The notes under the pieces were generated by a model. The model did not search any database, was not told the DNA's origin, and was given only the letters and a program-made list of their open reading frames with translations. Position numbers and translations under genes: made by a program. 64,000 nucleotides of DNA from positions 486 to 64,485 of the forward strand of contig JBBAKM010000007.1 in NCBI GenBank assembly GCA_040403495.1. The letters run 5' to 3'. Below, in pieces: positions 28,394-45,097 of the stretch. How positions within the stretch are numbered: position 1 is the stretch's first letter; every line of letters begins with the position of its first letter. The DNA comes from Bacteroidia bacterium. Its GTDB lineage: Bacteria; Bacteroidota; Bacteroidia; NS11-12g; UBA955.

Positions 28394-28409
28394 GTTTTAA
28401 TGAATTTAA

Positions 28410-28660
28410 TCCGTTCTCGCTCGCATCTTGCGAGTGATTAACCACACCCACCGTTCTCAGCGTTCTCGCTCGCATCTTGCGAGTGATTTACCATACCGCC
28501 TCTGGCGCAATTAATAAATACTTAAGTCGTTGTTGATCTCGGCTAATCCGAGACCAACAACGGCACAATATGAAGTTAAGTAAAAGAGATGCCGGAGGCA
28601 AGGTAGGAGTTAACTCGCAAGATGCGAGCTAGAACTGATGTGAGCTAGAACGGGTATAAT
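28410..28660. repeat. MITE-like composite inverted-repeat element, right copy with extra arm
   Basis: The left arm, ccgttctcgctcgcatcttgcgagtga, is present 1.5 times. The right arm, aactcgcaagatgcgagctagaac…gagctagaacgg, is its reverse complement. The internal perfect hairpin is gttgttgatctcggctaatccgagaccaacaac. Confidence 0.8.
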
Positions 28661-28671
28661 TTCAAAAAACA

Positions 28672-29367: not shown

Positions 29368-29379
29368 CTATTTTTTGAC

Positions 29380-32304
29380 TTAATTTTTATTTTCGGGTTC
29401 TACTAAATAAGGTATATTAAGTGTAACACGTGTACCCGTTTCTAAATTTGATTCATTGCCTATATTTTCAATCGTAAAAAAAGATTCAATTTTTAATAGT
29501 TTACTGTAAGCTTTTAATCTATTTTGAATATTATCCAAACCATAAGACTTTCTCTCTGATACCTTTTTATTATACCCTACGCCATTGTCTGTAATTATTA
29601 CATTCAATAGCTTGTCTTTGAGTTTAACATCAAGTTGAATACGGTTTAATTGCTGTTTATGAGGAACCAATCCATGAATGATTGCATTTTCTACAAAAGG
29701 CTGAAATATCATCGTAGGCACTTTAACATTTGTTATGGTGGCGCTTGATGTGTCTGAGAAAAAACGATAGTCAAAATCTATGTTTATATTCCTTATGAGA
29801 CCTTCTAGTTTAATATACTCTTTAATAGTTTCTATTTCTTGTTCTAATGATATGAAACTGTAATCAGATTTCTCCAAAATGCTTCGCATTACTTTACCAT
29901 ATTGCCCTATGAACTCAAAAGCTTTTTCCTTGTCATTATCCAAAACTACACTTTGCAAACTCATTAATGAGTTGCTTAAGTAATGAGGATTAATTTGAGC
30001 TCTCAATGCTTTAAGTTCGCTTTCAAGCAAGACTAATTCTCTTTTTAGCGTATTTTGCTTTAACTTAAAATAGAACTTACTTATGTAAACAGCAAGAATA
30101 ATTAATATCAAACCATAAATCAAAATGGCTATTTGAGAGCTATACCAAGCTGGTTCAACTATTAATTTAATTTTTTTATAGCTTTTAACATCTGAATCTT
30201 TATTCTTCCTAAAATACACATTGTAAGTTCCTCTTTTCAAGGAATATAAAATCAATTCAAAGTTATTTAAGAGTATCCATTTGTCACTTATTTCTGGAAT
30301 TTTATATTCAATATTTGTATGGTTTAGTAAATCAATATCCGCTAAAGCAAGTTTCATTGTAAAATCAGCAAATCCTTCTTTTAAATAATATTGATAACTT
30401 AATGGTTGCTTATCTCCATTATAATCTATTTGTTGAATTATAATTGGATTATTGTTCTTATAAGGGATATATGTATTAGGATCAAAAACTACTATGCCAG
30501 ACATATTAGACAATGCAAATCTATCATCACTTAATCTTACGCCAGAGTTGTAAAACCTTCCATTAAACTCTTTATTTATTAAGCCATTATTTGTATCAAA
30601 TCTATAAATTTGCAATTCATTTTTAGGGTTTTTTTCAAACCCCAAAACCTCATTTTTTTCTATTAAAACCAATCCACTGTTTGTTGGAATCCAATAATTT
30701 CCTTTTTTATCCACTAGGTAATAATGAGCAAAATTTAATACTCCATTAGGATCATTAAAAAACTTACTAATCTTCAAATCCTTATCCATCCAATAAATAC
30801 CAGAACCATACGTAAATACCCAATATTTATTAATACTTGAATCATACTTGACAAACCTTACTTCCTTTCCTATTAATTCATTAATAATTTTCGACTTTTG
30901 GGTTAACAAATCATATAATTCAATCCCATCTTTTTCTCTTACTAAAAGCCACTGGCTTGGTTTATAAAACTCATGTGCAGAAGAAATTGTAAAATTTACC
31001 TTTAAGACATTCTCTAATTTGTTTTTCCCATTTAAGCAAAGCAATTTATTCCTGTGTAACACATATATTTTTCCTTTACTTAAAAATGCATCTGTATAAA
31101 ACTTTTCATTCGCTTCCGACGAAATATCCACTTTGTACTTTTTACAAGATTTGTCACTTATATAATAAACCGAGTCTTTGTTAAATAAGCATATTTCACT
31201 GCTGTTGATATTTATTGCGGCAGAAAAAAAATTGACAAACTGGAAGTTTTTGAATACACTTGAATTAAATGATAAAGGCATTCCTAAAGAATTAACAAAA
31301 ACTCGATAAACCTCCGCTTTTTCTTCCTCCCTTAAAGGATTTAATTCATTTTTAAAAAGACTTGGTTGTAGCAAATACAATCCATTTGTTGCGGAGTAAA
31401 AAATAGTTACTTTTTCATTTTTTAAATAGACAGATCTTTTTAAACTCTTATCCTCAATCCCATGCTTATTTATCTGTTTAAAATTCAATTTATTGTCTAA
31501 AATTATAACTTTAAACAAATCAGAACCTACATGTAAATCTATTTCATTGTTATTTTTATTAAATATTAAACTCGAGAGGTCAATTTTTCTATTTAAAATT
31601 TTTGGCAAATCATAAACTGCTTCTATTCTATCCTTATAAATCACATATAATTTTTTCGAGTAACTTAACATAGCAAGCCGGTTGTTAAATACAAAACCTG
31701 CATTAGAGAAAAATAAATGATCTATATTTGGTACTTTTTTGTCCTTGCCAAAAAAAATTTGATCTAAATTAACTTGATACCAAGTACTACTATCTAAATC
31801 ATAATAAAAAACACCATCATTTATATGATTAAAATTCCTTACAGTTGAAAATAAAACAGGATTTTCCTCTTTAAAAATCAATTCATAATTACCATTTACA
31901 ATACAATTTTTCCCAAAAACCAAACTTGAATCATAAATTAATTCAGAATTTTTATTGACCTTAAAAAAACGATTATCAGATGATTTAATTACCAATTCAC
32001 CATTTTCTCTTCTTTGAATTTTATCAAAACGATTATTTTTAATTGAAGGAAAGTTAATACTAGAATAATTAAAGAAACTTCTTCCATTATATCTACTTAG
32101 GCCTGATTGTGTAGCTATCCAAACAAATCCGTTTTTATCGCTATTCACATCATTAATTAGATTACTGGGTAAGCCATTTTCGTTAGTATAATGCTTTATC
32201 AAATAATCATTCTCATGTACTTTTTGTGAAGTAGCTGTATAGTTAAAAACCAAGAGCAAAACAATCAAAAACAAATCCTTTAAACCCTTTATTGTGCAAT
32301 TCAT
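29380..32304 (-). CDS. Sensor histidine kinase: periplasmic two-component-regulator propeller/Y_Y_Y-type domain + TM + LytS-type His_kinase/HATPase
   Basis: 974 aa with a signal/TM helix at the N-terminus and a long repeat-rich extracytoplasmic region. A TM helix (IAILIYGLILIILAVYI) is followed by the LytS signature 'INPHYLSNSL' and an ATPase domain. Confidence 0.8.
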   Translation of the reverse strand: MNCTIKGLKDLFLIVLLLVFNYTATSQKVHENDYLIKHYTNENGLPSNLINDVNSDKNGFVWIATQSGLSRYNGRSFFNYSSINFPSIKNNRFDKIQRRENGELVIKSSDNRFFKVNKNSELIYDSSLVFGKNCIVNGNYELIFKEENPVLFSTVRNFNHINDGVFYYDLDSSTWYQVNLDQIFFGKDKKVPNIDHLFFSNAGFVFNNRLAMLSYSKKLYVIYKDRIEAVYDLPKILNRKIDLSSLIFNKNNNEIDLHVGSDLFKVIILDNKLNFKQINKHGIEDKSLKRSVYLKNEKVTIFYSATNGLYLLQPSLFKNELNPLREEEKAEVYRVFVNSLGMPLSFNSSVFKNFQFVNFFSAAININSSEICLFNKDSVYYISDKSCKKYKVDISSEANEKFYTDAFLSKGKIYVLHRNKLLCLNGKNKLENVLKVNFTISSAHEFYKPSQWLLVREKDGIELYDLLTQKSKIINELIGKEVRFVKYDSSINKYWVFTYGSGIYWMDKDLKISKFFNDPNGVLNFAHYYLVDKKGNYWIPTNSGLVLIEKNEVLGFEKNPKNELQIYRFDTNNGLINKEFNGRFYNSGVRLSDDRFALSNMSGIVVFDPNTYIPYKNNNPIIIQQIDYNGDKQPLSYQYYLKEGFADFTMKLALADIDLLNHTNIEYKIPEISDKWILLNNFELILYSLKRGTYNVYFRKNKDSDVKSYKKIKLIVEPAWYSSQIAILIYGLILIILAVYISKFYFKLKQNTLKRELVLLESELKALRAQINPHYLSNSLMSLQSVVLDNDKEKAFEFIGQYGKVMRSILEKSDYSFISLEQEIETIKEYIKLEGLIRNINIDFDYRFFSDTSSATITNVKVPTMIFQPFVENAIIHGLVPHKQQLNRIQLDVKLKDKLLNVIITDNGVGYNKKVSERKSYGLDNIQNRLKAYSKLLKIESFFTIENIGNESNLETGTRVTLNIPYLVEPENKN

Positions 32305-32685
32305 TGTACTAAAAAAAAAGATAAATTCACAATTTCAACACAAGTTATACAATATTGTTTTAAACTATGAAGTCGCAAAATTAACTATTAGTGTGAAATA
32401 ATTTAAAAGATTTTCTGACAAGAATATGTTTTAAACATATTTTAATAACAATCTTCACATTTAGTTAATTGAGCACTCTTCATTAAGTAGTATTTTTTTG
32501 CTTGTTTTAATACTATCATTTCAACATTTATTGAATAAAACCAATAACCTAAATTATATTTTTGCATAATTTAACCCATTTAAGCTGTTATTGTTGTTTT
32601 TTAATTTCTGCATATTTGAATTAGTTCATTTACAAAACTTTTTTTTATAATCCCTTTCTTTTATACTTGGCCGTGCATTTTTTAC

Positions 32686-32756
32686 CGCTCTTTGATAAAC
32701 TCAGAACAGGCTCCAGCGCTGAGGTCGCTGAGGGGTTATTCACTAAGTCGCCTTAT
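32686..32756. repeat. Copy of the 'gataaactcagaacaggctcc.gcgct.aggtcgc.gagg' repeat; the second copy is at 38978
   Basis: About 60 nt are near-identical between 32686-32745 and 38978-39037. Confidence 0.75.
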
Positions 32757-33134
32757 TATAATATATTTCCTTGATAATTAATCCATTGAATAAGATATTA
32801 TTTGACCTTCGGTATGAAACTCTCTTGCAAAGTTTGAAACATAAAAATGAACAACTTGCGCTTGAACCACTAATACTTTCTGCCATTTTCCACAAGAAGT
32901 GCCTTTTAGTGGTGGTTTTAATTGAAATTATTGCACTTATCAAAACTCTAGAAAAAATAGTTTTTTGTTTGTTGACACCAATATAGAATTATTATTAATA
33001 GAAGTTGGATTATCCACTATTTTCATTTGTGATTTTGCTTCTTTAATAAAGAACCCTAAAAAAAATAGGCTTGAGGTTTGGCTTTTAGTTGTTTTTTTCA
33101 TTTTTTTAAATATCCTAATAAAATCTAAATAAAC

Positions 33135-34571
33135 TTAATTAATCCTTTTAGCAGACATCCAACTTTTACCATTTGCATCTGACAAAGTATAGCCTGAATT
33201 TGATGCCGCTTGAGAATAAATCCTTAATTTATATATTGCGGAACCTGTAGTGGTTACAAAATACTTACCATAACCGACACCTTGAACATTTAAAGAAAGT
33301 GCACTATATGTAGCTTGTGTTTCAGTATCACTAATCACTCCATTTGAAGATGATGTTAATACACCACTTACGCCTCCTGGTGTAGCTATATTAAAGCCTC
33401 TTAAACTCCATTCTATTTCCCAAACTCCAGCAGATGGTATTGTTATTGAAATATAATCTGTTGCAGTTGATGGGCTAGTTCCGGATGCAATAACCAAATT
33501 TGCACCAATTATTGGAGAAACAAATATAGGAAACACTGTTCTACTTATCATTCTCCATGCTGTTCCTGTACTTTGAATTGTAATCGAACTCAATGTAGGA
33601 ATTATAGTTGTTGAAATTCCATTTGTACCTAAAACATTTGATGCAAAAGACTTATCTACAGGACCAGAGTTAGCAACTACATATATCCTACCTGGACAAG
33701 ATGAAGCACTTGGAAGCGTTACAGTTTGAGTTGTGGCATCATTAAGAAATATAGTGTGGTCTTTGTTTCCTAATGTATATGTTGCACCTGTTATTCCTTT
33801 TGCAATTGGCGCAAAAGATCCTGATAATTCTAGTGTACTTGTTGGAGTTGTTGTACCAATTCCGACATCTCCATTATGTAATATTCTCATTCGTTCCTGT
33901 TCACTTGTATTACCAAGTGATGTCGTAGAAAATACTAGGTTTCCTCCCCCTTCTGTAGTAGTTTGATTTTCTGCTGTCAAGGCATTTATAGATGCATTTC
34001 TATTGTATGTAGTTCCGTTTGCGCTCTGAAACAATATTCCCGCTACTGCTGATCCTGAAACAAGTGCAGTGTTTACTGAAGGGTCTGCATTGTTAGTTTT
34101 ACGAATTGTAATCCATGCATTATTACCATTAGTAGTTGTTCCCCTAGTAATAGAAAAGTTTTGAATCGTTCCTCTAAAATCAAGAGATCTGTTTTCCATA
34201 TTTACTATTCTATTGCTTTTTAGAGTTCCATCAACCGTATAAATATTTTGTAGGTTTAAAGCATCTGCAATTTGAACCCATTGAGTGCCATCGTTATAAT
34301 AAAAACCAGGGCTTACATTATTTGGAGCAGTTCCTGCAGTAGCAGTGTTATAGACTGTCATACCTGAAATATGCGCGTTTAATGGCGAAGCATTATTAAT
34401 GGCACTTAGAGAAACTCTAGGCAAAAGCAAGCCTTTATTTGTGGACTCGAGTTCTAGAATAGAATTGGAATTAATCGTGGTTGGGTTATCACCCACTTTT
34501 ACTTGGGAATATGTTTCTTGAGATAATAATCCTAAAAAGAGAAGGATTAGGAGTTTGATTGTTTGTTTCAT
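33135..34571 (-). CDS. Secreted tail-fibre-like repeat protein, paralogue of 36184..38313 (shared N-terminal module)
   Basis: The start is chosen at MKQTIKLLILLFLGLLSQETYSQ, a signal peptide; the ORF track extends it upstream to 34652. The mature N-terminus VKVGDNPTTINSNSILELESTNKGLLLPRVSLSAINNASPL…YYNDGTQW is ~75% identical to that of the 709-aa protein. The 'ERMRILHNGDVGIGTTTPTSTL' repeat motif is present. Confidence 0.7.
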   Translation of the reverse strand: MKQTIKLLILLFLGLLSQETYSQVKVGDNPTTINSNSILELESTNKGLLLPRVSLSAINNASPLNAHISGMTVYNTATAGTAPNNVSPGFYYNDGTQWVQIADALNLQNIYTVDGTLKSNRIVNMENRSLDFRGTIQNFSITRGTTTNGNNAWITIRKTNNADPSVNTALVSGSAVAGILFQSANGTTYNRNASINALTAENQTTTEGGGNLVFSTTSLGNTSEQERMRILHNGDVGIGTTTPTSTLELSGSFAPIAKGITGATYTLGNKDHTIFLNDATTQTVTLPSASSCPGRIYVVANSGPVDKSFASNVLGTNGISTTIIPTLSSITIQSTGTAWRMISRTVFPIFVSPIIGANLVIASGTSPSTATDYISITIPSAGVWEIEWSLRGFNIATPGGVSGVLTSSSNGVISDTETQATYSALSLNVQGVGYGKYFVTTTGSAIYKLRIYSQAASNSGYTLSDANGKSWMSAKRIN

Positions 34572-34599
34572 TTTTATTATATTTTTGTTGTTTTTTTGA

Positions 34600-34740
34600 A
34601 TTCTTATTTTCTCACTTCGGAGGCATTCACCACAGAGGCACAAAGAGCACAAAGATTTCCTCAGTATTCTCCGTGACTTTGTGGTGCTTTTTTTTTACCA
34701 CGGAGTCAACCTCCATAGGCGGACAGACACATGCACAAAG
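34600..34740. repeat. GC-rich hairpin repeat ('cattcaccacagaggcacaaagagcacaaagatttcctcagtattctccgtgactttgtggtgcttttttt…accacggag'), copy 1
   Basis: It is near-identical to 35170-35250 and shares cattcacc/cggagg motifs with 38360-38400 and 39050-39080. Confidence 0.75.
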
Positions 34741-34741
34741 A

Positions 34742-35122
34742 TTATAAATAACCATTAATAGTCCTTTTAACTCCATTCTTTAATAACACTTCGTTAAAAT
34801 TGATTAATAACCCTAGTTTCAAATTTTTAAGTTTTAAATAGGTAAGGAGTTGTGCAGTATGAATATCCGCTAATGCTTCAACACTTTTAATCTCTATAAT
34901 TACTTTATTTTCAACTAGTGCATCTATTCTATATCCTGCATCGAGTTTTACATTTTTATAAACTACTGGTAGTGATTGCTGTTGATATACTTCCAATCCC
35001 ATTTGCCTAAGTTCGTAAACTAAACATACTTCGTAGGTACTTTCTAAAAGCCCTGGACCAAGATGCCTATGTACTTCTATTGCTGCACCGATTACTATTG
35101 TTGAAATTTCGTTTTCTGTCAT
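34742..35122 (-). CDS. GxxExxY family protein (PD-(D/E)XK nuclease fold)
   Basis: 126 aa. The N-terminus 'IVIGAAIEVHRHLGPGLLESTYEVCLVYEL' contains the invariant G..E..Y motif, and the size is right for the family. Confidence 0.75.
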   Translation of the reverse strand: MTENEISTIVIGAAIEVHRHLGPGLLESTYEVCLVYELRQMGLEVYQQQSLPVVYKNVKLDAGYRIDALVENKVIIEIKSVEALADIHTAQLLTYLKLKNLKLGLLINFNEVLLKNGVKRTINGYL

Positions 35123-35124
35123 TG

Positions 35125-35300
35125 TTTATTTATTTACCGCAGAGGCATTCCCTTAGAAGGAATCTACCAAAGAGACATTCACCACATAGGCACAAAGAGC
35201 ACAAAGATTTCCTCAGTATTCTCCGCGACTTTGTGGTGCTTTTTTTACCACGGAGGCATTTACAGCGGAGGCGAAGAGTAAGCTGAGGTGTTTTCTTTGC
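35125..35300. repeat. GC-rich hairpin repeat, copy 2 (flanks the other side of the GxxExxY gene)
   Basis: See 34600-34740. The element ends with accacggaggcatttacagcggaggcgaagag. Confidence 0.75.
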
Positions 35301-35320
35301 GCTATTTATATTTAATTTTA

Positions 35321-36160
35321 CTATTCAGTTTTTATTTTATCCATAGATTCTTTAATTGCAGTTATGGTTTTTAGGTTTTGAGCTGCTATTTCATATTCAG
35401 GGGCTAATTCCAATGCTTTCTTAAAACTTTCTATAGATTCCATGTAAGCCTTATTTTCGTATTCTAACAATCCATTGATATTATATAAAACTGCTCTAAA
35501 CGGCACATTTATTTCTTTTTTGTTTTTTTCATTAAGTACAGAGAGAGAAACTTGATTTATTGTGGTATCTGCCATTAAACTATTACAAGTTACTTGCGCC
35601 TCTTTAACCCTTTTGAGTTGTTGTTGTAATTGCAGTAATGCATAGCCATGTTGTATGTTTTTTGAATTAGAATATAACTTTTGGTATGCATCTGCTGCTT
35701 CAACCGTTTGGTTTAAGGCATTTGCAGAAACAGCGAATATTTCTGTTATTAAATCAGAACTTCTACCACTTTCTTGAATCTCTTTAACTAATTTGTAAGA
35801 AATATCGTATTGCCTGTTTTGTGCATACATTAAGGCTAAGGTATCTTTATATTCTATATTACTTTTATTTTCAATCAAATAATAATTTAAAGAAACTATT
35901 GCTGTATTTAAATCACCCTTTTGTATTGACTGTCTGTATACTTTCACGTGCAGATTCTCATTTAAGCTCTTATTTGGATTGGTCTTTTTTACTTTTTTTA
36001 CCTTAACATCTTGTGCAAAACCTAAATTATAACATAATAGAATGCATAATACGATTAGTCTTCCTAACATTTTGAATCTATTTATTGATTTAAAATCCAT
36101 TATTTTCATTTTTACTGTCATTAATTTTGAATAAAAAAAGGACTTTGATAATGATACCAA
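35321..36160 (-). CDS. Tetratricopeptide-repeat protein with an N-terminal signal/TM segment
   Basis: 279 aa with hydrophobic 'LGRLIVLCILLCYNLGFAQ' followed by several TPR-like helical repeats (…ALMYAQNRQY…, …AYMESIESFKKALELAP…). The true start may be an internal Met. Confidence 0.55.
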   Translation of the reverse strand: MVSLSKSFFYSKLMTVKMKIMDFKSINRFKMLGRLIVLCILLCYNLGFAQDVKVKKVKKTNPNKSLNENLHVKVYRQSIQKGDLNTAIVSLNYYLIENKSNIEYKDTLALMYAQNRQYDISYKLVKEIQESGRSSDLITEIFAVSANALNQTVEAADAYQKLYSNSKNIQHGYALLQLQQQLKRVKEAQVTCNSLMADTTINQVSLSVLNEKNKKEINVPFRAVLYNINGLLEYENKAYMESIESFKKALELAPEYEIAAQNLKTITAIKESMDKIKTE

Positions 36161-36183
36161 AGTCCTTTTTATGAAAAGTTTTT

Positions 36184-38313
36184 TTATTTCTTTTCTAACA
36201 ATTCCAATTTAGCTTTTAATTCATCTATCTGTTTTTGTTGATCTTTGATTGCTTCCACTAAAACTGGCACTAAATTTTGGTAAGCCATAGAAAGTGTTTC
36301 GCCTTTAGTAACATCTCCTTCTACACCCATTACAACTTCGGGTACAACTTTCTGAACATCTTGTGCTAAAAACCCTAATTGTCTTCCAGACTCAAGGTTA
36401 TTGCTCCAATTATAATAAACCCCATTCAATTGGTTTACCAATCCAAGTGCATTTTCAACTTTAACAACATTGGTTTTTAAACGAGCATCAGAAGAGTGTA
36501 ACCAACCAGTAGTGGTGTATGTTCCTGTTGTTGTTCCATTAAATACAGTAAGTCTTTGTGATGGGGAAGCTGTTCCTATACCAACATTTCCATTATTATT
36601 GATTCTCATTCGTTCAGAAGTACCACCATTATTAGTTTCAAAAACAATTTTACCAGCAGCACGTGTTGAAGTAATAACTATTCCATTATCGGTCCCTGTT
36701 TGGCCTGTTGTAGTAATCGCACCAGCACTATTACCATCAGCTGAATTAATAAAATATAGACCTCGATTTGAAATATCACCAAAAACATCCAATTTTCGAG
36801 TTGGTGAAGTTGTTCCTATACCTATATTACCAGCAATATTAATCCTCATTCTTTCCTCACTATCTGTTTCAAAAGCAATCCCTGTAAGAGATCTTATTGC
36901 TATTATTGTATTACTATTGATTGCCGGCCCAACTCCACCAGCTCCTGAAACTATATAACTTGCAGAATTATCTATTCGAATATTTCCTCCTGAAACTTGC
37001 AGTCTTTCAGTTGGAGAGACAGTACCTATACCAACATTACCACTATTATTAATAACCATAGCTTCCGTTTCTACACTTGAATTTGGCTGTTTTACATGAA
37101 ATTCAATAGCAGGCTTGGTTGACCTTGAATCAAATGATATAAATGAACCTTGAAAAGTAGGTTGACTTACTCCCAATAAAGATGGCATGTTTGAACCAAT
37201 TCGAATAAGTCCAACAGTGTTTCGCATAATACCCATGTTATAAGTTGAACTTAATGCAATATTACCATTTACTTCTAACCTTTGTGATGGAAAATCTTGC
37301 AAACCACCGCCAATTAGTAGTCCATTTGGATTTAATCTCATTAATTGAATATAGGTTGAAGCATCATTGGTCTGTGCCCATGTAAAACCACCTGCCCCTG
37401 TTCCTCTATGGTTTACAAATCCAGAATAGCCTTGTGCTGCTAACCCACCAAATAAAATACCTGAATTCCAAGACAAATGCATTCCTTGATTATTATTTGG
37501 TGCACCTGATACAATCAAAGCCCCTCCTGATACACTTAGCCTTGAAGGTGCGGTAGTTCTTCCTATAGAAACATTTCCATTGGGATGTACAATAAGTCTA
37601 TCTCTTCCTCTTGACATCAATCTAAATGAGTTATTATTAATAGTTCCTACTCTATTGTTTCTAGTGTTAGTATAATTACCACCTAAACGCCAAAACGGTG
37701 ATGTTGGCGGACGAGTTGAAGACAAAACCCAAGTTGTTCCGTTAAATTGATAGGTATTTCCTGCATTTGCTCCTTCAGTTACAACTCTTTTCTCGCCTGA
37801 AACAGGAGTATAAAAATTCCAAATCAGATTTCCTGATGTATTTACACCAGCTAACTCTGCTATATTATTTGTTTGTCCAGCCCAGTCTCCACTCGCACCC
37901 GATGGCACAATATAAACATCCCCATCATCACCTGAGGTAGGAGGAGCTGTTAGCGTATTATCAATAACTGGACCACCATCGTTGTCAACATCAGCTAAAT
38001 CAGAAAAAGCAATTAACTGCCATTTAGTTCCGTCGTTATAGTAATATCCTGGAACTACATCATTTGGCAATGTTCCCGCAGTGGCAGTGTTGTATACTAT
38101 CATACCTGCTACGTGAGCAGATAATGGAGATGCATTGTTTGTGGCAGAAAGAGTTACTCTTGGCAAGAGTAATCCTTTGTTTGTAGCTTCCAATTCTAAT
38201 ACAGAATTTGAATTAATGGTTGTAGGGTTATTTCCTACTTTTACTTGGGCGTATACCCCTTGAGCGAACAATCCTAAAAAAAATAGGATTAGTAATTTGC
38301 TTGTTTTTTTCAT
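36184..38313 (-). CDS. Secreted tail-fibre-like protein with a C-terminal peptidase-S74-type intramolecular chaperone (self-cleaving) domain
   Basis: 709 aa with signal peptide MKKTSKLLILFFLGLFAQGVYAQ. It has the paralogous N-terminal module and three or more 'ERMRINxxGNVGIGTxSPxxxL' repeats. The C-terminus 'SSDARLKTNVVKVENALGLVNQLNGVYYNWSNN…' followed by a coiled-coil tail (IDELKAKLELLEKK) matches the SDxRxK(E/T)N[IV]…Y.W signature of phage tail-spike/endosialidase chaperone domains. Confidence 0.7.
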   Translation of the reverse strand: MKKTSKLLILFFLGLFAQGVYAQVKVGNNPTTINSNSVLELEATNKGLLLPRVTLSATNNASPLSAHVAGMIVYNTATAGTLPNDVVPGYYYNDGTKWQLIAFSDLADVDNDGGPVIDNTLTAPPTSGDDGDVYIVPSGASGDWAGQTNNIAELAGVNTSGNLIWNFYTPVSGEKRVVTEGANAGNTYQFNGTTWVLSSTRPPTSPFWRLGGNYTNTRNNRVGTINNNSFRLMSRGRDRLIVHPNGNVSIGRTTAPSRLSVSGGALIVSGAPNNNQGMHLSWNSGILFGGLAAQGYSGFVNHRGTGAGGFTWAQTNDASTYIQLMRLNPNGLLIGGGLQDFPSQRLEVNGNIALSSTYNMGIMRNTVGLIRIGSNMPSLLGVSQPTFQGSFISFDSRSTKPAIEFHVKQPNSSVETEAMVINNSGNVGIGTVSPTERLQVSGGNIRIDNSASYIVSGAGGVGPAINSNTIIAIRSLTGIAFETDSEERMRINIAGNIGIGTTSPTRKLDVFGDISNRGLYFINSADGNSAGAITTTGQTGTDNGIVITSTRAAGKIVFETNNGGTSERMRINNNGNVGIGTASPSQRLTVFNGTTTGTYTTTGWLHSSDARLKTNVVKVENALGLVNQLNGVYYNWSNNLESGRQLGFLAQDVQKVVPEVVMGVEGDVTKGETLSMAYQNLVPVLVEAIKDQQKQIDELKAKLELLEKK

Positions 38314-38345
38314 TTTATTGATACTTTGGTTATTTTTTATTTTTT

Positions 38346-38412
38346 ATTTTTTATTTTTTTCACCCGGAGACATTCACCGCAGAGACGCGGAGAACGCGGA
38401 GGGGATTTTCGC
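38346..38412. repeat. T-rich run + 'cacccggagacattcaccgcagagacgcggagaacgcggagggg' member of the cattcacc/CGGAG repeat family
   Basis: It shares the gacattcacc.cag ag motif with 35180-35200 and cgcggag(g) with 39065-39085. Confidence 0.6.
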
Positions 38413-38413
38413 T

Positions 38414-38956
38414 TCATTTCCTTTTTATTGTGTGTTTTAATTTAACGACTGCAAAATTCAGTTCTATAGTTGTTTCGGTATTGGTTACATTAAGTTCATT
38501 GCCTATCCAATCTGATATTAATACACTTGTTTGATTCATTATTTCTTTTTGTTTTTCTGGATCTTCGGTTGTATTTATTGTTTCTAGGTTTCTTGTTAGT
38601 TCTTTGAATGTTGCAAATGCTTCTATAATGGAAAGAGTGGTTTGGGTTGCTTTGGCACTTTTTAAAATTGTTGCTAGCATATAAAGCCCTTTTTCAGTAA
38701 AGGCTTTTGGAAGTTTTACTTTCCCTCCAGCTGATAATGAAGACGAAAATTTCGACTTCATTGTATTCCACTCTTCTGTATTTAGATACAATATATACCC
38801 TTCAGGAAATCTATCGGGATTGTTTTTTACTGCCTCATTTACGCGTTTGGTTTCTACACCATACAAGGCAGCCACATCACTATCCAAGATAACTTTTGTT
38901 TCTCGGAGCATCATGATTTTGCTTTCTACTTCGCTATGGGTTAGTTTTCCATTCAT
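38414..38956 (-). CDS. ORF6N-domain (KilA-N-related, phage antirepressor-type) DNA-binding protein
   Basis: 180 aa. The N-terminal 'VILDSDVAALYGVETKRVNEAVKNNPDRFPEGY' is the ORF6N signature. Confidence 0.7.
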   Translation of the reverse strand: MNGKLTHSEVESKIMMLRETKVILDSDVAALYGVETKRVNEAVKNNPDRFPEGYILYLNTEEWNTMKSKFSSSLSAGGKVKLPKAFTEKGLYMLATILKSAKATQTTLSIIEAFATFKELTRNLETINTTEDPEKQKEIMNQTSVLISDWIGNELNVTNTETTIELNFAVVKLKHTIKRK

Positions 38957-38977
38957 TTATTAATTTTCTATTCTTTT

Positions 38978-39092
38978 ATTTACTGCTCTTCGATAAACTC
39001 AGAACAGGCTCCGGCGCTAAGGTCGCGGAGGTTTTCTTCTCTCTGCGCTCTTAGATTTTCACCACGGAGGCGCGGAGGTCGCTGAGGGGATT
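38978..39092. repeat. Second copy of the 'gataaactcagaacaggctcc' repeat, extended with accacggaggcgcggaggtcgctgagggg
   Basis: See 32686. The 3' part is GC-rich CGGAG repeats. Confidence 0.75.
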
Positions 39093-39093
39093 T

Positions 39094-40602
39094 TTATTTA
39101 TTCAATATAATTTTATAGGTTTTGGTTTGATAATTGCTTGTTACATTCAAAAAATACATGGCGTTATCCAAATGATTCAAATCTATTGATTGTAAACCCG
39201 ATTGTTTTGAATCATTACTCAAAATTAATTTACCATCAAAAGAAGTTAGCGTGTAGGTTAAATCTGTGTTTTCTGAAAAAATATTAATAATTCCTTGAGA
39301 TGGATTTGGATAAATTTTTACCACAGGATTAAGTCCATCACTAAATTCAACTATTTTGAAATCAGACTGAGTTGGATTCCCTTCAAAATCTACCATTGTT
39401 AATTTGTAAAAATTTAAGCCCAATTGTGCATTAACATGTTTAAATGCATAATTATTAACCAGTGATGAAGTTCCTGCTCCTTTTACTTCTCCTATTTTAG
39501 ACCAATTCGTTCTATCCACACTGGTTTCTAAAACAAAGTGACTGTTGTTGAATTCATTGGTAGTAGTCCAAGTAATTTGAGACACCAAATAACTAGCAGC
39601 TTGTGCATTAAAATCAATTAAGGTAACTGGCAATGGCGTTAATAAGTTAGTTGATTTACTGTAAAAAGCACCACTAGCGGAAGCAGAAGTAACTGTAGTA
39701 TATAATCTTGTATGCTTTACTGCAGATAAAGATGTACCTGTTGAAGGTGCATTTGTCCCTATGGCACCAACTCCGTCATCCCACATTGAAGAACCTTGAT
39801 ACTGAGTCACAAAGGCATCTGCATCTGAAGTATAAGCCGAACCATTAGTTGATGTATTATGTTGAAGTGTTAAATTAGCTGCCGAACCTGAAGTAGAATA
39901 AATATTCCAAGTTCGAAAAATTCCATTATCAGGAACTCTCTCATCAGAAGCAGACTCCGAATAGTTTTTTACTTGAACAAAAAAGTTATCAGTAGAATTG
40001 GGTGTTATGGTTGCAGGGGTATAATCAGTTGTAGCTCTTCCAACGGGGAAATCAAAAGAAGCAGAAGAAGCAATAGATTCTTTAGCTAAAAATCCCGTTC
40101 CATTGGTTACTATATATTGGGTTTCGTCTACATTGGTAATAGTAGCAGCGGATGCAACCTCAAAATTTTGATCTCCTAAAATCAAATGCCCATTTACAAA
40201 ATCCAAACCCGTTGTAATCCTTGCGTATGAATTTGTTAAAGTAACGTTATTGGTATTGTCTATTGCGATATTAATCAACGAAGGATGAGCTCCACCAATA
40301 GTAGAGCTATTACCTCCATCGAGTGTTTGAGCAGCAGCACCTACAAACAAAATCCTTCCTGTTCCAGCTTGTGTAGAAGTAGTATTGGCAAAAATTTCAG
40401 CCCCAGTATTAATAGTAGTAGCAGATCCTAACATGTGTAATGTGGAACCATTTTGAAAAAACATTTGTGCATCTACTCCTAATTGCAAATTACCAAAGTT
40501 ACCCATTTCTCCAAAAACTGAAAAAGAGCCATTGATATTAGTTTGGGAATGTGTTGCATTTATAAATAGCAATGTAAAAGCAAATAGAAGTGACTTCTTC
40601 AT
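39094..40602 (-). CDS. Secreted protein with a T9SS type-A (Por_Secre_tail) C-terminal sorting domain
   Basis: The start is taken at MKKSLLFAFTLLFINATHSQ, a signal peptide. The C-terminal ~80 aa, 'KIYPNPSQGIINIF…YFLNVTSNYQTKTYKIILNK', is the type-A CTD pattern. Confidence 0.7.
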   Translation of the reverse strand: MKKSLLFAFTLLFINATHSQTNINGSFSVFGEMGNFGNLQLGVDAQMFFQNGSTLHMLGSATTINTGAEIFANTTSTQAGTGRILFVGAAAQTLDGGNSSTIGGAHPSLINIAIDNTNNVTLTNSYARITTGLDFVNGHLILGDQNFEVASAATITNVDETQYIVTNGTGFLAKESIASSASFDFPVGRATTDYTPATITPNSTDNFFVQVKNYSESASDERVPDNGIFRTWNIYSTSGSAANLTLQHNTSTNGSAYTSDADAFVTQYQGSSMWDDGVGAIGTNAPSTGTSLSAVKHTRLYTTVTSASASGAFYSKSTNLLTPLPVTLIDFNAQAASYLVSQITWTTTNEFNNSHFVLETSVDRTNWSKIGEVKGAGTSSLVNNYAFKHVNAQLGLNFYKLTMVDFEGNPTQSDFKIVEFSDGLNPVVKIYPNPSQGIINIFSENTDLTYTLTSFDGKLILSNDSKQSGLQSIDLNHLDNAMYFLNVTSNYQTKTYKIILNK

Positions 40603-41150
40603 TTTAAAAATATTTAATTGATATGTTTTAATATTATAGTTCATAATGTTTGATTGATTAAATTGTACTAAGTGGTTCATTTTTGTGTAATTTAAAGTGC
40701 AGCAAAGTTAAGAACGTAATTAATGCTAATATTTTTACAGTAATGAAAGTGAATAAATATTTTCCCAAATGACCTTAAAATGAAACGAAATTACCTTTTT
40801 AGCTTTCGAGAGTAATTCAAAACCTATAGAATAGGGTATAAAAAGGTGTTAAATTAATGTTAATTTCACCAAATACACTCCCATTGATTGAAACCAATGT
40901 ACTACAACATGCTTTTTGTACTACAAATTTCACACAACATTCATTTTCGCTCACCGCTATTGATTAATACTTTGAAAATCAATCCATGAAAATAACATAA
41001 GTTAGAAAAAAAACCACAAACGAAGTACATAAAAAGATAAAACACTATATTTAAGTATAAAAATAGACTATAAAAATCCAATTAATAAGAAAAATGTACC
41101 CATTATTATAAAGTACTCGATAAAAATTTAGGTACTTTCATTTAAAATAA

Positions 41151-41180
41151 AAGGTCATTTGTTAGTCAGAAGGTCATTTT
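41151..41180 (+). promoter_or_regulatory. Direct repeat aaggtcattt-N9-aaggtcattt about 80-100 bp upstream of the regulator gene cluster; a candidate LytTR-type or LuxR-type operator
   Basis: The core aggtcattt is at 41152-41160 and again at 41171-41179, giving a 19-bp period. An AT-rich tattatataaa -7-like element lies about 30 bp downstream. Confidence 0.35.
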
Positions 41181-41257
41181 GAAGTTTTCCAAAAAATAGT
41201 ATTATATAAAAGGGACTAATTTCGAAAAAATTAATTGAATCTATTTCAATATACTAA

Positions 41258-41923
41258 TTGACAATGCAACAACTCATAATTATCAACAAAGACAAAGAAC
41301 AGGCGGAAGATTTAAAAAGTATGCTTTCACCTCATTATTTTGTTAGAGGCATCTTTTCTAACATTGAGAGTTTTATTGAAGTGATGTCACTAAAAACACA
41401 TATTTACATTATCATTTATTGCAATAAGACCATCGATAATTTTGCAGCAGTAAAAAGCTCAAGAATCATTATTTACAACAGTTTAGAAAATGACAAGCTA
41501 ATATTTAATGCCATACAATTAGGAGTAAAAGGTTTTGTAAATCATACTCAGAAAATAAATGAGTTATTAGACATTATAGAAATAATCATTATGGGTGGTT
41601 GCTATGTAAGTAATACCATTATTTACAAACTCTTTAAACACATACAAGACATCAATGATTTAATCCTAGGAAAAAAAATACAGAAATACGACACACTATC
41701 CAGAAGAGAAGTAATGGTTTTTGAACAACTTCTTAGTGGATATTCGTACAAAGAAATTTCTACAAACCTTGGCATTTCAGTTGACACAACACGTAAACAC
41801 ATCAGTAGAATTTACAAAAAAATAAATATTCACAGCAAAGGAGAACTTTATAATCTACATTATAATGTTCAAATAAAATCCAAACAGTACAATCAATTAT
41901 TTCCACAATACATTAAACAATAA
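41258..41923 (+). CDS. LuxR/FixJ-family transcriptional regulator with a degenerate N-terminal receiver-like domain
   Basis: 221 aa. The C-terminal HTH 'LSRREVMVFEQLLSGYSYKEISTNLGISVDTTRKHISRIYKKINIHSKGEL' is the GerE/LuxR type. The N-terminal ~120 aa are receiver-sized but lack an obvious DD…D…K phospho-acceptor set. Confidence 0.7.
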   Translation: MTMQQLIIINKDKEQAEDLKSMLSPHYFVRGIFSNIESFIEVMSLKTHIYIIIYCNKTIDNFAAVKSSRIIIYNSLENDKLIFNAIQLGVKGFVNHTQKINELLDIIEIIIMGGCYVSNTIIYKLFKHIQDINDLILGKKIQKYDTLSRREVMVFEQLLSGYSYKEISTNLGISVDTTRKHISRIYKKINIHSKGELYNLHYNVQIKSKQYNQLFPQYIKQ

Positions 41924-41928
41924 TAACC

Positions 41929-42519
41929 ATGATTACTTCAAGAAAAACCAAAAGAAAATCCAATACACCTTTTTACAATATCTGCATAGTGGACGATTCT
42001 CACATTTATGCATTAGGCTTAAAAAACAGCATTGATAAGAGTCTAAATAGAACGGCTCACTCATTCGTTTTTCATCACAAAAGTTTAGATGAAATTAACA
42101 CATCAAGCACAGCTCCTATTGATATTTTATTTATAGATTACGATGATTTACTTCTTCCTCAATTTAACACCATTTTCTCAAAATTGAAAAGAAAAAATCC
42201 AAGTATGAAACTTATCGTTTCTACGGCTGATTTGCTAAATATAGATTTCATAAAATTATACACCTATAACATCAATGGATTATTCTCCAAAAGCTTAAGT
42301 ACAAAAGCATTTAATATTTATTTTAAACGTGTTTTAGATCAAACCATGTTTATTGACCAATATAGTATTAGAAGAATTGTAGAAGAAGAGAAGAAGCAAA
42401 AAATTAGGTACTATTATAAATCTGTTTCACTTCAAAACTTGGAGTTGATTCAAAATCGTTATTTGAACTATACACCCTATTTTGTTGACAAAGAAGCTTT
42501 ATCATTTCTTCAGCAGTAA
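41929..42519 (+). CDS. Stand-alone receiver-like (possibly pseudo-receiver) domain protein
   Basis: 196 aa. The 'ICIVDDSH…DILFIDYDD…LIVSTAD' pattern resembles a CheY-like fold. No output domain is present. Confidence 0.4.
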   Translation: MITSRKTKRKSNTPFYNICIVDDSHIYALGLKNSIDKSLNRTAHSFVFHHKSLDEINTSSTAPIDILFIDYDDLLLPQFNTIFSKLKRKNPSMKLIVSTADLLNIDFIKLYTYNINGLFSKSLSTKAFNIYFKRVLDQTMFIDQYSIRRIVEEEKKQKIRYYYKSVSLQNLELIQNRYLNYTPYFVDKEALSFLQQ

Positions 42520-42600
42520 ATTAAAACTTATAAACTTGAAATAACCTACAATTTAATGTTAATTTGCATTAATTTATTGGTACTTTATTGAAATCAAAAA

Positions 42601-43329
42601 ATGTTTAGCGCCATATTAATAGACGATCAAGAAGAAATTATAGTTTCTATTAGCAAAATGATTGCTCATTTTTTCAATGAGGATATTAAAATTATTGGCA
42701 CTTATACTTCATCTGAAGAGGCAATCATTTCATTATCGGAAACTGAACCCGATCTTATTTTCATGGATATGGAAATGCCCTATTTAAATGGACTTGATGC
42801 TATCAATTTAATTCCCGACAATATAAAATCAAAAGTTATTGTTATTTCAGGCAAAGATCAATATGCTATAAAAGCACTTAAATTCAATGTATTTGATTAT
42901 TTATTAAAACCTGTTTCTTTGATTGAGTTTAAAAAATGTATCGAAAAACTAAAGGCCGAAGAAGCGTTAATTAAAGTCAATCAAAATGAAGTTAAATCAA
43001 ATACCATTGTTATTGATAGTAAATTCAAAACCTATTTTTTAGAATTTCCACTTATTAATCACATAAAGTCGAAATCCTCACATACGCTTATTAATATTGA
43101 AAATCAGGAACAGTTAGTTCCTCGACCTATAAAATATTTTGAAGAAATACTCCCTAAAACACTTTTTTTCTCCCCTCACAGATGTCATATTGTAAACTTT
43201 AACTTTATTAAGGAACTTCGTAAATCCGAAAATGGCGGTGCTATTATGGTTTTAAAGGATGATACCCAAATTGAAATGTCAAAAAAGAAGAGAGTTAGCT
43301 TTATGACTCACTTCAAATACAAGTTTTAG
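42601..43329 (+). CDS. LytTR-family response regulator, paralogue of 28672..29367
   Basis: 242 aa. The receiver 'ILIDDQEE…DLIFMDMEMPYLNG…VIVISGKDQYAIKALKFNVFDYLLKP' is followed by a LytTR domain. No kinase gene is adjacent. Confidence 0.85.
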   Translation: MFSAILIDDQEEIIVSISKMIAHFFNEDIKIIGTYTSSEEAIISLSETEPDLIFMDMEMPYLNGLDAINLIPDNIKSKVIVISGKDQYAIKALKFNVFDYLLKPVSLIEFKKCIEKLKAEEALIKVNQNEVKSNTIVIDSKFKTYFLEFPLINHIKSKSSHTLINIENQEQLVPRPIKYFEEILPKTLFFSPHRCHIVNFNFIKELRKSENGGAIMVLKDDTQIEMSKKKRVSFMTHFKYKF

Positions 43330-43514
43330 TGTTTGGGGGTCGTGAAAAAGTTATAAAAACCTTGTTCATTTGTTATAATTGTTAATCCCGTTAGTATTTC
43401 GTAAGATTTGCTAGCGGTTTTTTCTTAGCCTTTTTTGTGCTTGAGCTAAGCTCAGACTAAATTCTCAGAGATTATCCACTCGAACTCAAGAGTTCTCATC
43501 TCTTAAGCAAAAAA

Positions 43515-43540
43515 AAACAGGCGGTAAGCCTGTTTGTTTT
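43515..43540. terminator. Bidirectional rho-independent terminator (aaacaggc-ggtaa-gcctgttt flanked by an A9 run upstream and a T-rich run downstream)
   Basis: A perfect 8-bp stem with a 5-nt loop is flanked by caaaaaaaaa on the left and gtttgtttt on the right. Confidence 0.65.
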
Positions 43541-43557
43541 GCGGAGAGTAAGAGATT
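43541..43557 (-). repeat. 17-nt duplicate of the tRNA-Ser 3' end (gcggagagtaagagatt = the T-arm/acceptor 3' part); att-like remnant
   Basis: It is identical to 43717-43733 inside the intact tRNA gene. Confidence 0.7.
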
Positions 43558-43672
43558 ATTGGCATGATCTCTGTGAGGAGTGGCTTCAAGACACTACAAA
43601 ACCTAGCCGTTACACGGCTGGTCTTTTTTTATGCCCTTTTTTGTGCTTGAGCTAAGCTCAGACAAAAAAAGG

Positions 43673-43702
43673 GCATAAAAAAACCTCAATAAAATTGAGG
43701 TT
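43673..43702 (-). terminator. Terminator immediately 3' of tRNA-Ser (cctcaat-ttt-attgagg stem followed by T7 on the minus strand)
   Basis: The forward strand reads aaaaaaacctcaataaaattgaggtttt. On the minus strand a hairpin is followed by ttttttt. Confidence 0.65.
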
Positions 43703-43713
43703 TTGTAGAGTCT

Positions 43714-43801
43714 TGGCGGAGAGTAAGAGATTCGAACTCTTGATACCTTGCGATATACACGCTTTCCAAGCGTGCTCCTTAAACCACTCGGACAACTCTC
43801 C
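43714..43801 (-). tRNA. tRNA-Ser (anticodon GGA), type II with a long variable arm; the CCA end is encoded
   Basis: The minus strand reads GGAGAGTTGTCCGAGTGGTTTAAGGAGCACGCTTGGAAAGCGTGTATATCGCAAGGTATCAAGAGTTCGAATCTCTTACTCTCCGCCA. It has a 7-bp acceptor stem, a D-arm with GG, an anticodon stem CACGC/GCGTG with loop TTGGAAA, a long extra arm and a T-arm GTTCGAATC. Confidence 0.9.
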
Positions 43802-43852
43802 TTTATTCGTTTGCAAAAATAATCCTATTTTTTATTAAAAAAATTGCATTAT

Positions 43853-43911
43853 TTATACACGCTTTCTCCCGAAACCTCGGGATGCTCCTTAAACCACTCG
43901 GACAACTCTCC
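43853..43911 (-). pseudogene. Partial tRNA-Ser copy (5' acceptor + D-arm + part of the variable arm) with the anticodon arm replaced by an unrelated hairpin; tRNA fragment
   Basis: 43884-43911 is identical to 43774-43801, and 43853-43865 to 43751-43763. The segment caagcgt is replaced by tcccgaaacctcgggat, and no 3' half is present. Confidence 0.7.
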
Positions 43912-44019
43912 TTTTTCTAACGGATTGCAAAATTAATGCTTTTTAATTTAACTATTAAAGTTTTATTGCTCAATTTCTAAGTAATTTTACACCTTAACCT
44001 TTTATTCATTATTTTGAAA

Positions 44020-44460
44020 TGAACAGACTCCAAGCATGGCGTCCCTATCATTATCCATTTTCCAATAGCTATTGGGATTATTCCACCCCAAATTCTTTTT
44101 GTCATCTTTATTGCAAGGGAAAAGCAAAAAAGTCGCCAAAAATATTGTGTGGGTTTGCTCATAACCACGGGGGAAAAACCTATCCACGGGTTAAAAACCC
44201 TAACCACGGGTTAAAAACCCTAACCACGGGTTAAAACCCGTGGCTATTATTATTATTATGGTCTTGTGAAGGATTATTTTCTATTTCCCCGATAGCTATC
44301 GGGACTATTAACCAACAACATCACGTTGAACATCGTGAAACCATTCAAAACCCTTCGAGAAAATCTCTCACGTGACTAGGCTCAGCCTAGTGGGTGACAC
44401 CTAAACAATCACGCTGAACGGCGTGAAACCTCCCAAGGATTCGGGACTATTAACTCTTTT
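44020..44460. repeat. Mosaic intergenic repeat element (family A copy 2) including a 20-bp tandem array ccacggg(tt/gg)aaaaaccctaa x ~3.5
   Basis: It shares blocks with 20120-20600 and 23590-23930. The tandem units lie at 44165-44240. Confidence 0.8.
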
Positions 44461-44494: not shown

Positions 44495-45097
44495 ATGAAA
44501 TTTATTGAATTGGACCAAATCCAACAGTATGAAATTCTGGATACTCGAATTCCCGACCTTTTTGAACGTGGCTTTATTCCCCGTTCTATCAACGTAGGTC
44601 TTAATGGCTCTTTTGAACAAAAATTAAAAACTGTGTTTCCCGATACCTCTACCCCATTATTGGTTGTATCTGACAAAAATGAACTCTCACTCAATCAGTT
44701 GAATGAATTGGGCTATTCCAATCTCGTTTTCTTAGAAAATGGCTTTAAAACATACGCCCAAGCTCAATTGCCTATTGATGTTATTATTAGTGTATCAACT
44801 GAAGAGTTTGAGCTCGACCTAAATTTTAACAATGAATTTGTTGTGGATGTTCGCAATCCCGAAAAATACAACAATGGCCATGTGCTCGAAGCTATTAATA
44901 TTCCCTACACTGAACTGCCTAGTAAACTTCATGCTTTACCCAAAGACAAAGTTATTTACTTGTATTGTAGCAGTGGTTATAGCAGTATGATTGCTTCTAG
45001 TTTGCTCAGAAAAAACGGCTTTCTCCTGATTAAAAATGTGTATGGAGGAATTGAACAAATTAGTAAAACTAAAATTCCAATTATTCAAAACGCTTGA
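44495..45097 (+). CDS. Tandem rhodanese-like domain protein (sulfurtransferase-like)
   Basis: 200 aa. The second domain carries the active-site Cys loop 'YCSSGYSSMIAS', and the first domain looks inactive. Confidence 0.65.
   Translation: MKFIELDQIQQYEILDTRIPDLFERGFIPRSINVGLNGSFEQKLKTVFPDTSTPLLVVSDKNELSLNQLNELGYSNLVFLENGFKTYAQAQLPIDVIISVSTEEFELDLNFNNEFVVDVRNPEKYNNGHVLEAINIPYTELPSKLHALPKDKVIYLYCSSGYSSMIASSLLRKNGFLLIKNVYGGIEQISKTKIPIIQNA

Follow-up and report, generated by a model that had tools for sequence, protein, structure and literature searches.

Integrases leave attachment-site (att) scars at the 3′ ends of transfer RNA (tRNA) genes, and mobilizable elements of the NBU type are an example from the Bacteroidota. 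The start of the T-loop is a typical position for integrase att sites, and Williams is said to have described in 2002 the T-loop as a sublocation of integrase sites in tRNA genes. The tycheposon model describes tRNA-seeded genomic islands that contain partial tRNAs and degraded elements (bioRxiv 10.1101/2020.12.28.424599). Integration into the 5′-distal part of tRNA genes is rare and documented (Zhao & Williams 2002, cited in PMC6563490), and CalSub-E1, in tRNA-Ser, is an example (PMC6563490). Here we analyze the tRNA-Ser(GGA) gene in a 64-kb stretch of DNA (the window; 64,000 nucleotides (nt) of contig JBBAKM010000007.1), which carries partial copies of itself on both sides. An earlier reading of the same DNA, made from the letters alone (the sequence-only reading), had taken the locus for an integration or rearrangement scar, and our comparisons support this. 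Judged by its counterparts in related lineages, the gene is the border between a conserved flank, on the side of a rhodanese gene, and a hypervariable flank, on the side of a LytTR regulator gene. The history that we favor, with moderate confidence, combines repeated integration at the T-loop on the 3′ side with a separate recombination event on the 5′ side.

By searching with the flanking proteins (LytTR and rhodanese), we recovered the same locus in seven other lineages; the related contigs come from lake metagenomes, and a search of genome contigs with the LytTR protein gave two useful loci. Identities to the window are 92% for LytTR in L019, whose right flank is 95.8% identical as DNA, 84% for LytTR in L020, 64% for LytTR in L005, 63.5% for LytTR and 96.5–97% for rhodanese in L012/L013 and L014–L018, 98.5% for rhodanese in L031, and 93% for rhodanese in L023, whose contig extends only into the tRNA. 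Loci L009 and L004 have the LytTR gene and the tRNA trailer, and their contigs end short of the tRNA. Most contigs recovered from the rhodanese side end 40–230 nt upstream of that gene and are uninformative on the 5′ copy. In L012–L015, where both flanks lie on single contigs, identity to the window changes sharply at the tRNA, from 63.5% for LytTR to 96.5–97% for rhodanese; this contrast (∼64% vs. 97%) identifies the tRNA as the edge of a variable region.

The gene itself is intact. ARAGORN called only one tRNA in the 64 kb, tRNA-Ser(GGA), and Rfam agrees. It has its own terminator, as the sequence-only reading had said: the hairpin AAAACCTCAAT...ATTGAGGTTTT with its T run folds as predicted. 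Its first 85 nt are identical in the six loci checked (L005, L012, L014, L019, L020, and L031). Rfam matches other than tRNA (microRNA precursors, a Phe leader) were far under their gathering scores and reflected the long palindrome.

That the features on the 3′ side form an array of att scars at a tRNA integration hotspot is well supported by the comparison of loci. The 17-mer AATCTCTTACTCTCCGC is present in exactly two copies, both on the minus strand, one within the tRNA (43716–43732) and the other 156 nt past its 3′ end (43541–43557), against a chance expectation of 0.06; the exact copy reported by the sequence-only reading is thus confirmed. The two copies have the same orientation and begin in the T-loop, as expected of the direct repeats of a tRNA 3′ segment that att scars form, and the duplication is also present in L012–L018 and L031. 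When we cut the trailer region at every AATCTCT, in tRNA orientation, it resolved into three types of cassette, A, B, and C (Table 1), with lengths of 84–177 nt across lineages and a terminator hairpin in each. Cassette C, which in its complete form comprises the core, GAGAATTTTGTCTGAGCWTAGCTCAAGC, a terminator, an inverted trailer, and a tail (120–123 nt), is found as one or two complete units per locus in L005, L012, L014, and L031. The tail GAAGCCACCCC...AGAGATCATGYCAAT ends B, C, and some A copies. The nested palindrome described earlier, whose arms are perfectly complementary, is confined to the long form of cassette B; two further inverted copies, one of the T-arm and one of the tRNA trailer, are absent from the earlier account.

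Read outward from the tRNA, the cassettes are ordered B-A-C in the window and L019, B-C-C in L005, A-B-C-C in L012 and L014, and A-C-C-A′ in L031, and L020 has A. Cassette B therefore directly follows the tRNA in L019 and L005, and it is second in L012 and, as a short form of 93 nt, in L014; cassette A directly follows the tRNA in L012, L014, L020, and L031. The DNA between the 17-mer repeats consequently differs in relatives, with neither cassette A nor the second 17-mer in L005 and only cassette A in L020. Because the cassettes are conserved in relatives while their order and number vary, the 3′ copy, the hairpin module, and the palindrome are parts of an att-scar array. Dissected in this way, the 17-nt copy heads cassette A, the module heads cassette C and recurs within long B, and the palindrome is a B/C fusion. 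The CCA at the tRNA 3′ end (43714–43716) is encoded only where cassette B follows the tRNA (the window, L019, and L005); where cassette A follows (L012, L014, L020, and L031), it is not encoded.

The sequence-only reading had counted two copies of a hairpin module and proposed a search for more. Two copies of the 19-mer GCTTGAGCTAAGCTCAGAC are indeed present, at 43439 and 43645, and the rest of the window has none (expectation 0.01); they are part of a locally repeated cassette of ∼121 nt and not a dispersed element. A dispersed module of the miniature inverted-repeat transposable element or repetitive extragenic palindrome type was rejected, both copies in the 64 kb being at the locus; a single match in a Joint Genome Institute metagenome (L007) lies inside a long open reading frame (ORF), and we read it as chance. 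The earlier reading had also named the finding that would speak against insertions, conservation of the fragments in relatives as part of a leader or trailer. The 3′ pieces are conserved in the trailer region, and the 5′ piece is not. A conserved multi-tRNA precursor or leader was rejected as well, as the 5′ fragment is absent from seven lineages and the 3′ pieces are permuted, each with its own terminator.

Wherever unlike cassettes meet, the switch falls at AATCTCT, and four types of tail combine with three types of head. We considered whether such an array could have formed without a recombinase, from trailer and terminator repeats lying between the convergent LytTR operon and the tRNA and reshaped by slippage, unequal crossing-over, and palindrome-driven rearrangement, the 17-nt copy being part of one repeat. 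The C units are true tandem repeats of 120–123 nt with variable copy number, the region is rich in inverted repeats (the palindrome, the inverted T-arm, and the inverted trailer) and in terminator-like hairpins (7 vs. 1.0 expected), hairpin stems carry compensatory changes (AGCCG..CGGCT vs. AGCCA..TGGCT), and no integrase was found among the 39 window ORFs tested, all of which would fit. However, this explanation is rather doubtful in view of the confinement of all unlike-cassette junctions to the 7-nt T-loop core, with heads and tails combining freely, the start of the 17-nt identity at the T-loop position typical of integrase att sites, and the inserted DNA that the same tRNA sub-site borders in L009 and L004, with mobile-element genes in L009. 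An identity of 7–17 nt is too short for efficient RecA recombination.

The inserted DNA in relatives gives the integration reading its cargo. In L009, a 16-nt tRNA 3′ fragment (AATCCTCTTTCTCCGC) with the same T-loop start abuts inserted DNA with RteC and HTH_17/AlpA-like genes, and in L004 a tRNA 3′ fragment of the same extent abuts inserted DNA with Fic; in both loci, a cassette-A-type terminator and the tRNA 3′ fragment adjoin the LytTR gene. Abi_2 and DUF6088 are found inside the last cassette in L005, L012, and L013. Mobile-element or cargo genes at the same sub-site in some relatives are another mark of att scars and, together with the start of the 17-mer in the T-loop, support the earlier view of the 3′ copy as an integrase-type duplicate. 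In the L004/L009 lineage, the T-stem of the tRNA fragment differs, and the inverted T-arm (about 5535–5560 in L009 and about 5870–5895 in L004) carries matching changes (GAACCT, GAGGGAT). Because of the position of the repeats in the tRNA, the short shared core, and the nature of the cargo, we infer that a tyrosine recombinase made the array. Site-specific integration at the T-loop of the tRNA would then have struck the hypervariable flank repeatedly, and the cassettes would represent direct repeats of the attL/attR type with the remains of element ends between them.

Like the described scars at tRNA 3′ ends, the array has a direct repeat that runs from the T-loop to the 3′ end, an intact gene at one end, and relatives with mobile-element or defence cargo at the same sub-site. 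Unlike them, it has no integrase or cargo between the repeats, only terminator-bearing remnants of 84–177 nt, and it chains several cassette types that are permuted between lineages, one of them with an inverted T-arm. The array is a known kind of structure, ordinary though unusually tidy. With tycheposon islands the locus shares a tRNA at the proximal end of a variable island, multiple partial tRNA copies, strain heterogeneity that is highest beside the tRNA, and elements that are rarer than their scars. In contrast to those islands, it belongs to another phylum, no tycheposon hallmark genes were seen in it, and its scars form a compact sub-kilobase array rather than being scattered through the island.

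The variable flank extends well beyond the array. The window segment from 28.4 to 43.4 kb is missing in L031, where the array abuts a homologue of the window ORF at 27692–28393. This ∼15-kb segment (28406–43430) encodes two LytTR-type regulators, one beside a histidine kinase and the other with a GerE-family regulator, together with type IX secretion system (T9SS) cargo proteins, ORF6N, PDDEXK_3, and a tail-fibre-like protein (Peptidase_S74 + DUF2793). At its left border, neither an integrase nor the tRNA core sequence was found; a direct and inverted repeat of GTTCTCGCTCGCATCTTGCGAGTGATT surrounds a hairpin there (28411–28655). In L008 (5850–6060), the same GTTCTCGCTCGCATCTTGCGAGTGATT structure comes directly after the counterpart of the LytTR gene at 42601–43329 of the window, and both ends of the variable segment are therefore adjacent in L008.

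On the 5′ side, the sequence-only reading had described a second, partial copy of the gene in which an unrelated hairpin replaces the anticodon arm. Both the copy and the hairpin are real. Positions 1–29 of the tRNA are repeated exactly (expectation 0), an identity of 32 nt with three upstream bases counted, and so are positions 36–48; the anticodon arm is not replaced as a whole, only the 5′ strand of its stem and most of its loop, the 16 nt TCCCGAGGTTTCGGGA standing in place of the 6 nt CGCTTG (positions 30–35). Neither ARAGORN nor Rfam called the pseudo-copy as a tRNA. In an alignment of the upstream regions (A1), the sequence found ahead of the pseudo-copy in the window (...GCATTAATTTTGCAATCCGTTAGAAAAA) stands, nearly identical, directly before the intact tRNA of L019, L031, L014, L012, and L020, and L005 matches this ancestral region for the promoter-proximal 38 nt only. 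Compared with these six loci the window has an insertion of 110 nt, and in L023 the ancestral flank leads into a tRNA 5′ part that is normal and unreplaced up to the end of the contig. The 5′ copy is thus an insertion, as had been proposed: it is absent from seven related lineages, and in A1 the ancestral promoter abuts the intact tRNA. The 110 nt consist of 81 nt not found elsewhere (the 16-nt hairpin, 13 nt of tRNA, and a 52-nt spacer) and the duplicate of positions 1–29. The tRNA 5′ segment is present as a direct repeat whose displaced copy sits on the ancestral flank, as expected of 5′-type integration.

Table 1. Positions in the window of the tRNA-Ser(GGA) gene, its partial copies, and neighbouring features.
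Feature	Position	Strand	Content or basis
Intact tRNA-Ser(GGA)	43714–43801	-	88 nt, CCA encoded; ARAGORN; Rfam tRNA, 55.5 bits
17-nt core AATCTCTTACTCTCCGC, within tRNA	43716–43732	-	T-loop to discriminator; first 7 nt, AATCTCT, are the junction common to all cassettes
Cassette B	43558–43732	-	175 nt; core, TACTCTCCGC, CCA, trailer, tRNA terminator, palindrome, second terminator, inverted trailer, tail (...AGAGATCATGCCAAT)
tRNA terminator hairpin	about 43684–43700		AAAACCTCAAT...ATTGAGGTTTT and T run
Nested palindrome	43624–43683		19-nt arms, 43624–43642 and 43665–43683, 100% complementary
Second terminator of cassette B	43603–43621		
Inverted tRNA-trailer copy	43587–43604		94%
Cassette A	43474–43557	-	84 nt; second 17-nt core (43541–43557), TACTCTCCGC, terminator A (43510–43540), inverted T-arm
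Inverted T-arm copy	43486–43505		90% complementary
C-type cassette head	43418–43473	-	core AATCTCT (43467–43473), then GAGAATTTAGTCTGAGCTTAGCTCAAGC; holds the module's second copy; runs into the 3′ flank of the LytTR gene
110-nt insertion, this strain only	43802–43911	-	alignment A1; placement ambiguous within the 32-nt repeat
52-nt spacer	43802–43853	-	now immediately upstream of the working tRNA; Bacteroidota-type -7 box TATTTTTG at 43814–43821
Displaced 5′ pseudo-copy	43854–43911	-	positions 1–29 (43883–43911), hairpin (43867–43882; 6-bp stem, 4-nt loop), positions 36–48 (43854–43866)
Ancestral upstream region and promoter	43912–43975	-	-7 box TAATTTTG at 43928–43935; now attached to the pseudo-copy
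LytTR gene	42601–43329		
Rhodanese gene	44495–45097		

The 52-nt spacer may supply the working gene with a promoter. As read from the sequence, its -7 box TATTTTTG (which matches TAnnTTTG) lies 12 nt from the tRNA 5′ end, vs. 16 nt for the ancestral TAATTTTG. The spacer is ∼63% identical to the ancestral upstream region (hand count on A1) and is unique in the window and among the other loci L001–L030; it looks like a diverged homologue of a tRNA-Ser upstream region that came from elsewhere. In L005 (7627–10680), the upstream flank departs from that of the other relatives 38 nt before the tRNA, and T9SS and Fib_succ_major proteins replace the rhodanese; thus, the 5′ side of the tRNA can also be a rearrangement border.

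The two 5′ units are adjacent and in the same orientation, as would follow from a local slippage duplication of ∼100–110 nt (the promoter and positions 1–48), after which the spacer diverged and a small templated hairpin was inserted. The spacer and ancestral positions -52 to -1 align over their full length; AATAATGC faces AATAAAAC at the distal end, and near the -7 box 17 of 20 positions match. The hairpin also resembles hairpins nearby: it matches a conserved one upstream of the rhodanese gene (44431–44446) at 14 of 16 positions, and its stem is the same as that of CCCGATAGCTATCGGG at 44288, a stem pattern that occurs twice in 64 kb vs. 0.04 expected. These local resemblances hint at a templated repair event, as a lead only. 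A resemblance of the hairpin to the D-arm, with 14 matches in 19 gapped columns, was too weak for us to give it weight. However, the tRNA parts are identical at 42 of 42 positions and the spacer at ∼63%, which is incompatible with a single duplication followed by neutral decay, and the nearest relatives, L019 and L031, are without the duplication. A simple tandem duplication that decayed is therefore unlikely.

Could the pseudo-copy be retained because it works as an RNA, either as a leader that is made from the strong ancestral promoter and influences how the downstream tRNA folds or is processed, or as a decoy for a tRNA-binding factor? It keeps an intact promoter, the 5′ strand of the acceptor stem, the D-arm, and a stable hairpin where the anticodon arm was, and a 236-nt read-through transcript has a better fold than shuffled sequences have (z = -3.9). 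This z-score, however, is mostly due to the real tRNA and terminator in the folded stretch, the pseudo-copy lacks the T-arm and the 3′ acceptor strand, there are no further copies for covariation, and only one strain has it among the lineages compared, so that such a role is very improbable. Beyond the tRNA and the terminators, nothing at the locus looks active or functional.

The 32-nt repeats break short-k assemblies here, and many contigs of relatives break near the locus, so that an assembly artefact or a collapse of two co-existing alleles might be suspected behind the 5′ duplication. The junction between GGAGCA and TCCCGAGG, however, is novel sequence and not a join of two known alleles. 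Moreover, Logan contigs L001 and L002, which match the window at 100% identity, both stop exactly at 43802. This is the last 31-mer that is unique ahead of the 32-nt repeat, where assemblies of a real repeat should stop, and it supports the duplication as real in the reads. We regard an artefact as extremely improbable. Also rejected were a tRNA intron, a split tRNA, and insertions of the IS200/IS605 or Cas1 type, none of which predicts a 29–32-nt duplication with a promoter-bearing insert; no such genes are nearby.

Most likely, then, the 5′ copy reflects recombination with foreign DNA that carried a promoter and a tRNA 5′ part. The pseudo-copy would stem from a separate and recent event in this strain, in which the gene recombined with foreign DNA that brought its own promoter and the first ∼29–48 nt of the same tRNA. 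As a dead fragment, the ancestral promoter and first 29 nt would have ended up 110 nt farther upstream, and the imported candidate promoter would now drive the working gene. Two versions of this event account for the data about equally well. In one, a 5′-type (reverse-orientation) att exchange would have involved an attP with a promoter and the tRNA 5′ part, and the element would later have been reduced to 81 nt, a reduction that would be the norm on the 3′ side of the same gene. In the other, homology-facilitated illegitimate recombination would have occurred with a diverged copy of the locus, anchored in or downstream of the tRNA, with the illegitimate join between GTGTATA and AATAATGC.

The sequence-only reading had placed a 5′-half duplicate outside the known models of tRNA-targeting integration. 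This was overstated, since 5′-distal recombination at tRNA genes is rare but documented (PMC6563490). In common with such integrations, the tRNA 5′ part is duplicated here, the displaced copy stays on the old promoter, and the working gene appears to get a new upstream region with a plausible promoter. Unlike in those cases, only 81 nt and no integrase lie between the repeats, a 16-nt hairpin is substituted inside the homologous block of the displaced copy, and neither a second instance nor an attP was found in the collections searched.

Seven patterns from the locus and its relatives (the hairpin junction, the junction of pseudo-copy and spacer, the L009 junction, the proximal promoter, the tRNA 3′ end, cassette A, and the cassette tail) were scanned against IMG/VR, and no donor or attP came to light with any of them. 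For the tRNA 3′ end, the sole matches were Ser tRNAs in phage tRNA gene clusters. BLAST matches of the locus to plasmids and phages were to the tRNA only, apart from a 5.6-kb Chryseobacterium “plasmid” that we set aside, as it has housekeeping-type genes only and is without mobility or replication genes.

Several results weigh against the history that we favor. On the 3′ side, we detected no recombinase or transposase domain, Phage_integrase included, in the 39 window ORFs tested and hence no integrase beside the site, and the L009 contig stops short of the tRNA-proximal end of its element, before an integrase could have shown up. For the cassette tail, cassette A, and the L009 junction, IMG/VR yielded no attP-like partner, and for the locus the phage and plasmid collections yielded none. 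The observed cassette orders could also have arisen from a larger ancestral array by differential deletion. On the 5′ side, no element with an integrase was found between the repeats and no matching attP; only 81 nt are there, far too few for an element. Neither the rest of the window nor loci L001–L030, IMG/VR, or the phage and plasmid collections gave a second copy of the 81-nt insert, and the small non-autonomous element copying tRNA 5′ parts that the earlier reading had entertained has no support. A 16-nt hairpin flanked by two perfectly conserved tRNA blocks is predicted by neither version of the 5′ event without an extra event. Outside the window, the duplication is independently supported only by the contig break points in two runs of apparently the same strain.

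A more far-reaching reading would make the cassettes live, cargo-less mini-elements, bare attP arms with a terminator that are moved at the 7-nt core by a recombinase encoded elsewhere, and would include the promoter-swapping 110-nt insertion. We hold this to be quite unlikely. If it were true, the tRNA 3′ end would be shuffled between CCA-encoding and non-encoding forms and its terminator swapped, the 110-nt insertion would be the promoter-swapping counterpart on the 5′ side, and the inverted T-arm in cassette A, which tracks the T-stem of each lineage, would be part of a folded recombination site. The combination of repeated T-loop integration and a separate 5′ recombination event remains the history that we favor.

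The tRNA lies between a regulator cluster (GerE, a 196-aa protein, and LytTR) that ends at 43329 and the rhodanese gene that starts at 44495. Several T9SS cargo proteins are encoded near the locus, which marks the organism as a member of the Bacteroidota. The spacer between the tRNA and the rhodanese gene is ∼690 nt long in the window vs. ∼200 nt in L020 and L023; many assemblies are interrupted within this spacer. A dispersed intergenic repeat family with the pattern cataaccacgggttaaaacccgt.gctat...cc.atagc.atcgggactatt occurs at 44140–44312 and 20440–20560, also at 20129–20146 and 44060–44082. Within this family, 44162–44236 is a 20-nt tandem repeat of TAACCACGGGTTAAAAACCC in 3.8 copies, and ATAGCTATYGGGA occurs 9 times vs. 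0.09 expected.

On the evidence of the aligned loci, the 5′ pseudo-copy is a genuine, strain-specific scar of the rarer kind, which probably swapped the promoter of the tRNA. It should not be annotated as a tRNA, and the 32-nt repeat, together with the neighbouring hairpin repeats, breaks short-read assemblies at the locus. Cassette order could be used to tell strains apart at a fine scale. The locus as a whole is a clear and compact case of a tRNA gene that seeds a variable region, with protein identity of 97% on one side and 64% on the other and segments of ∼15 kb that come and go.

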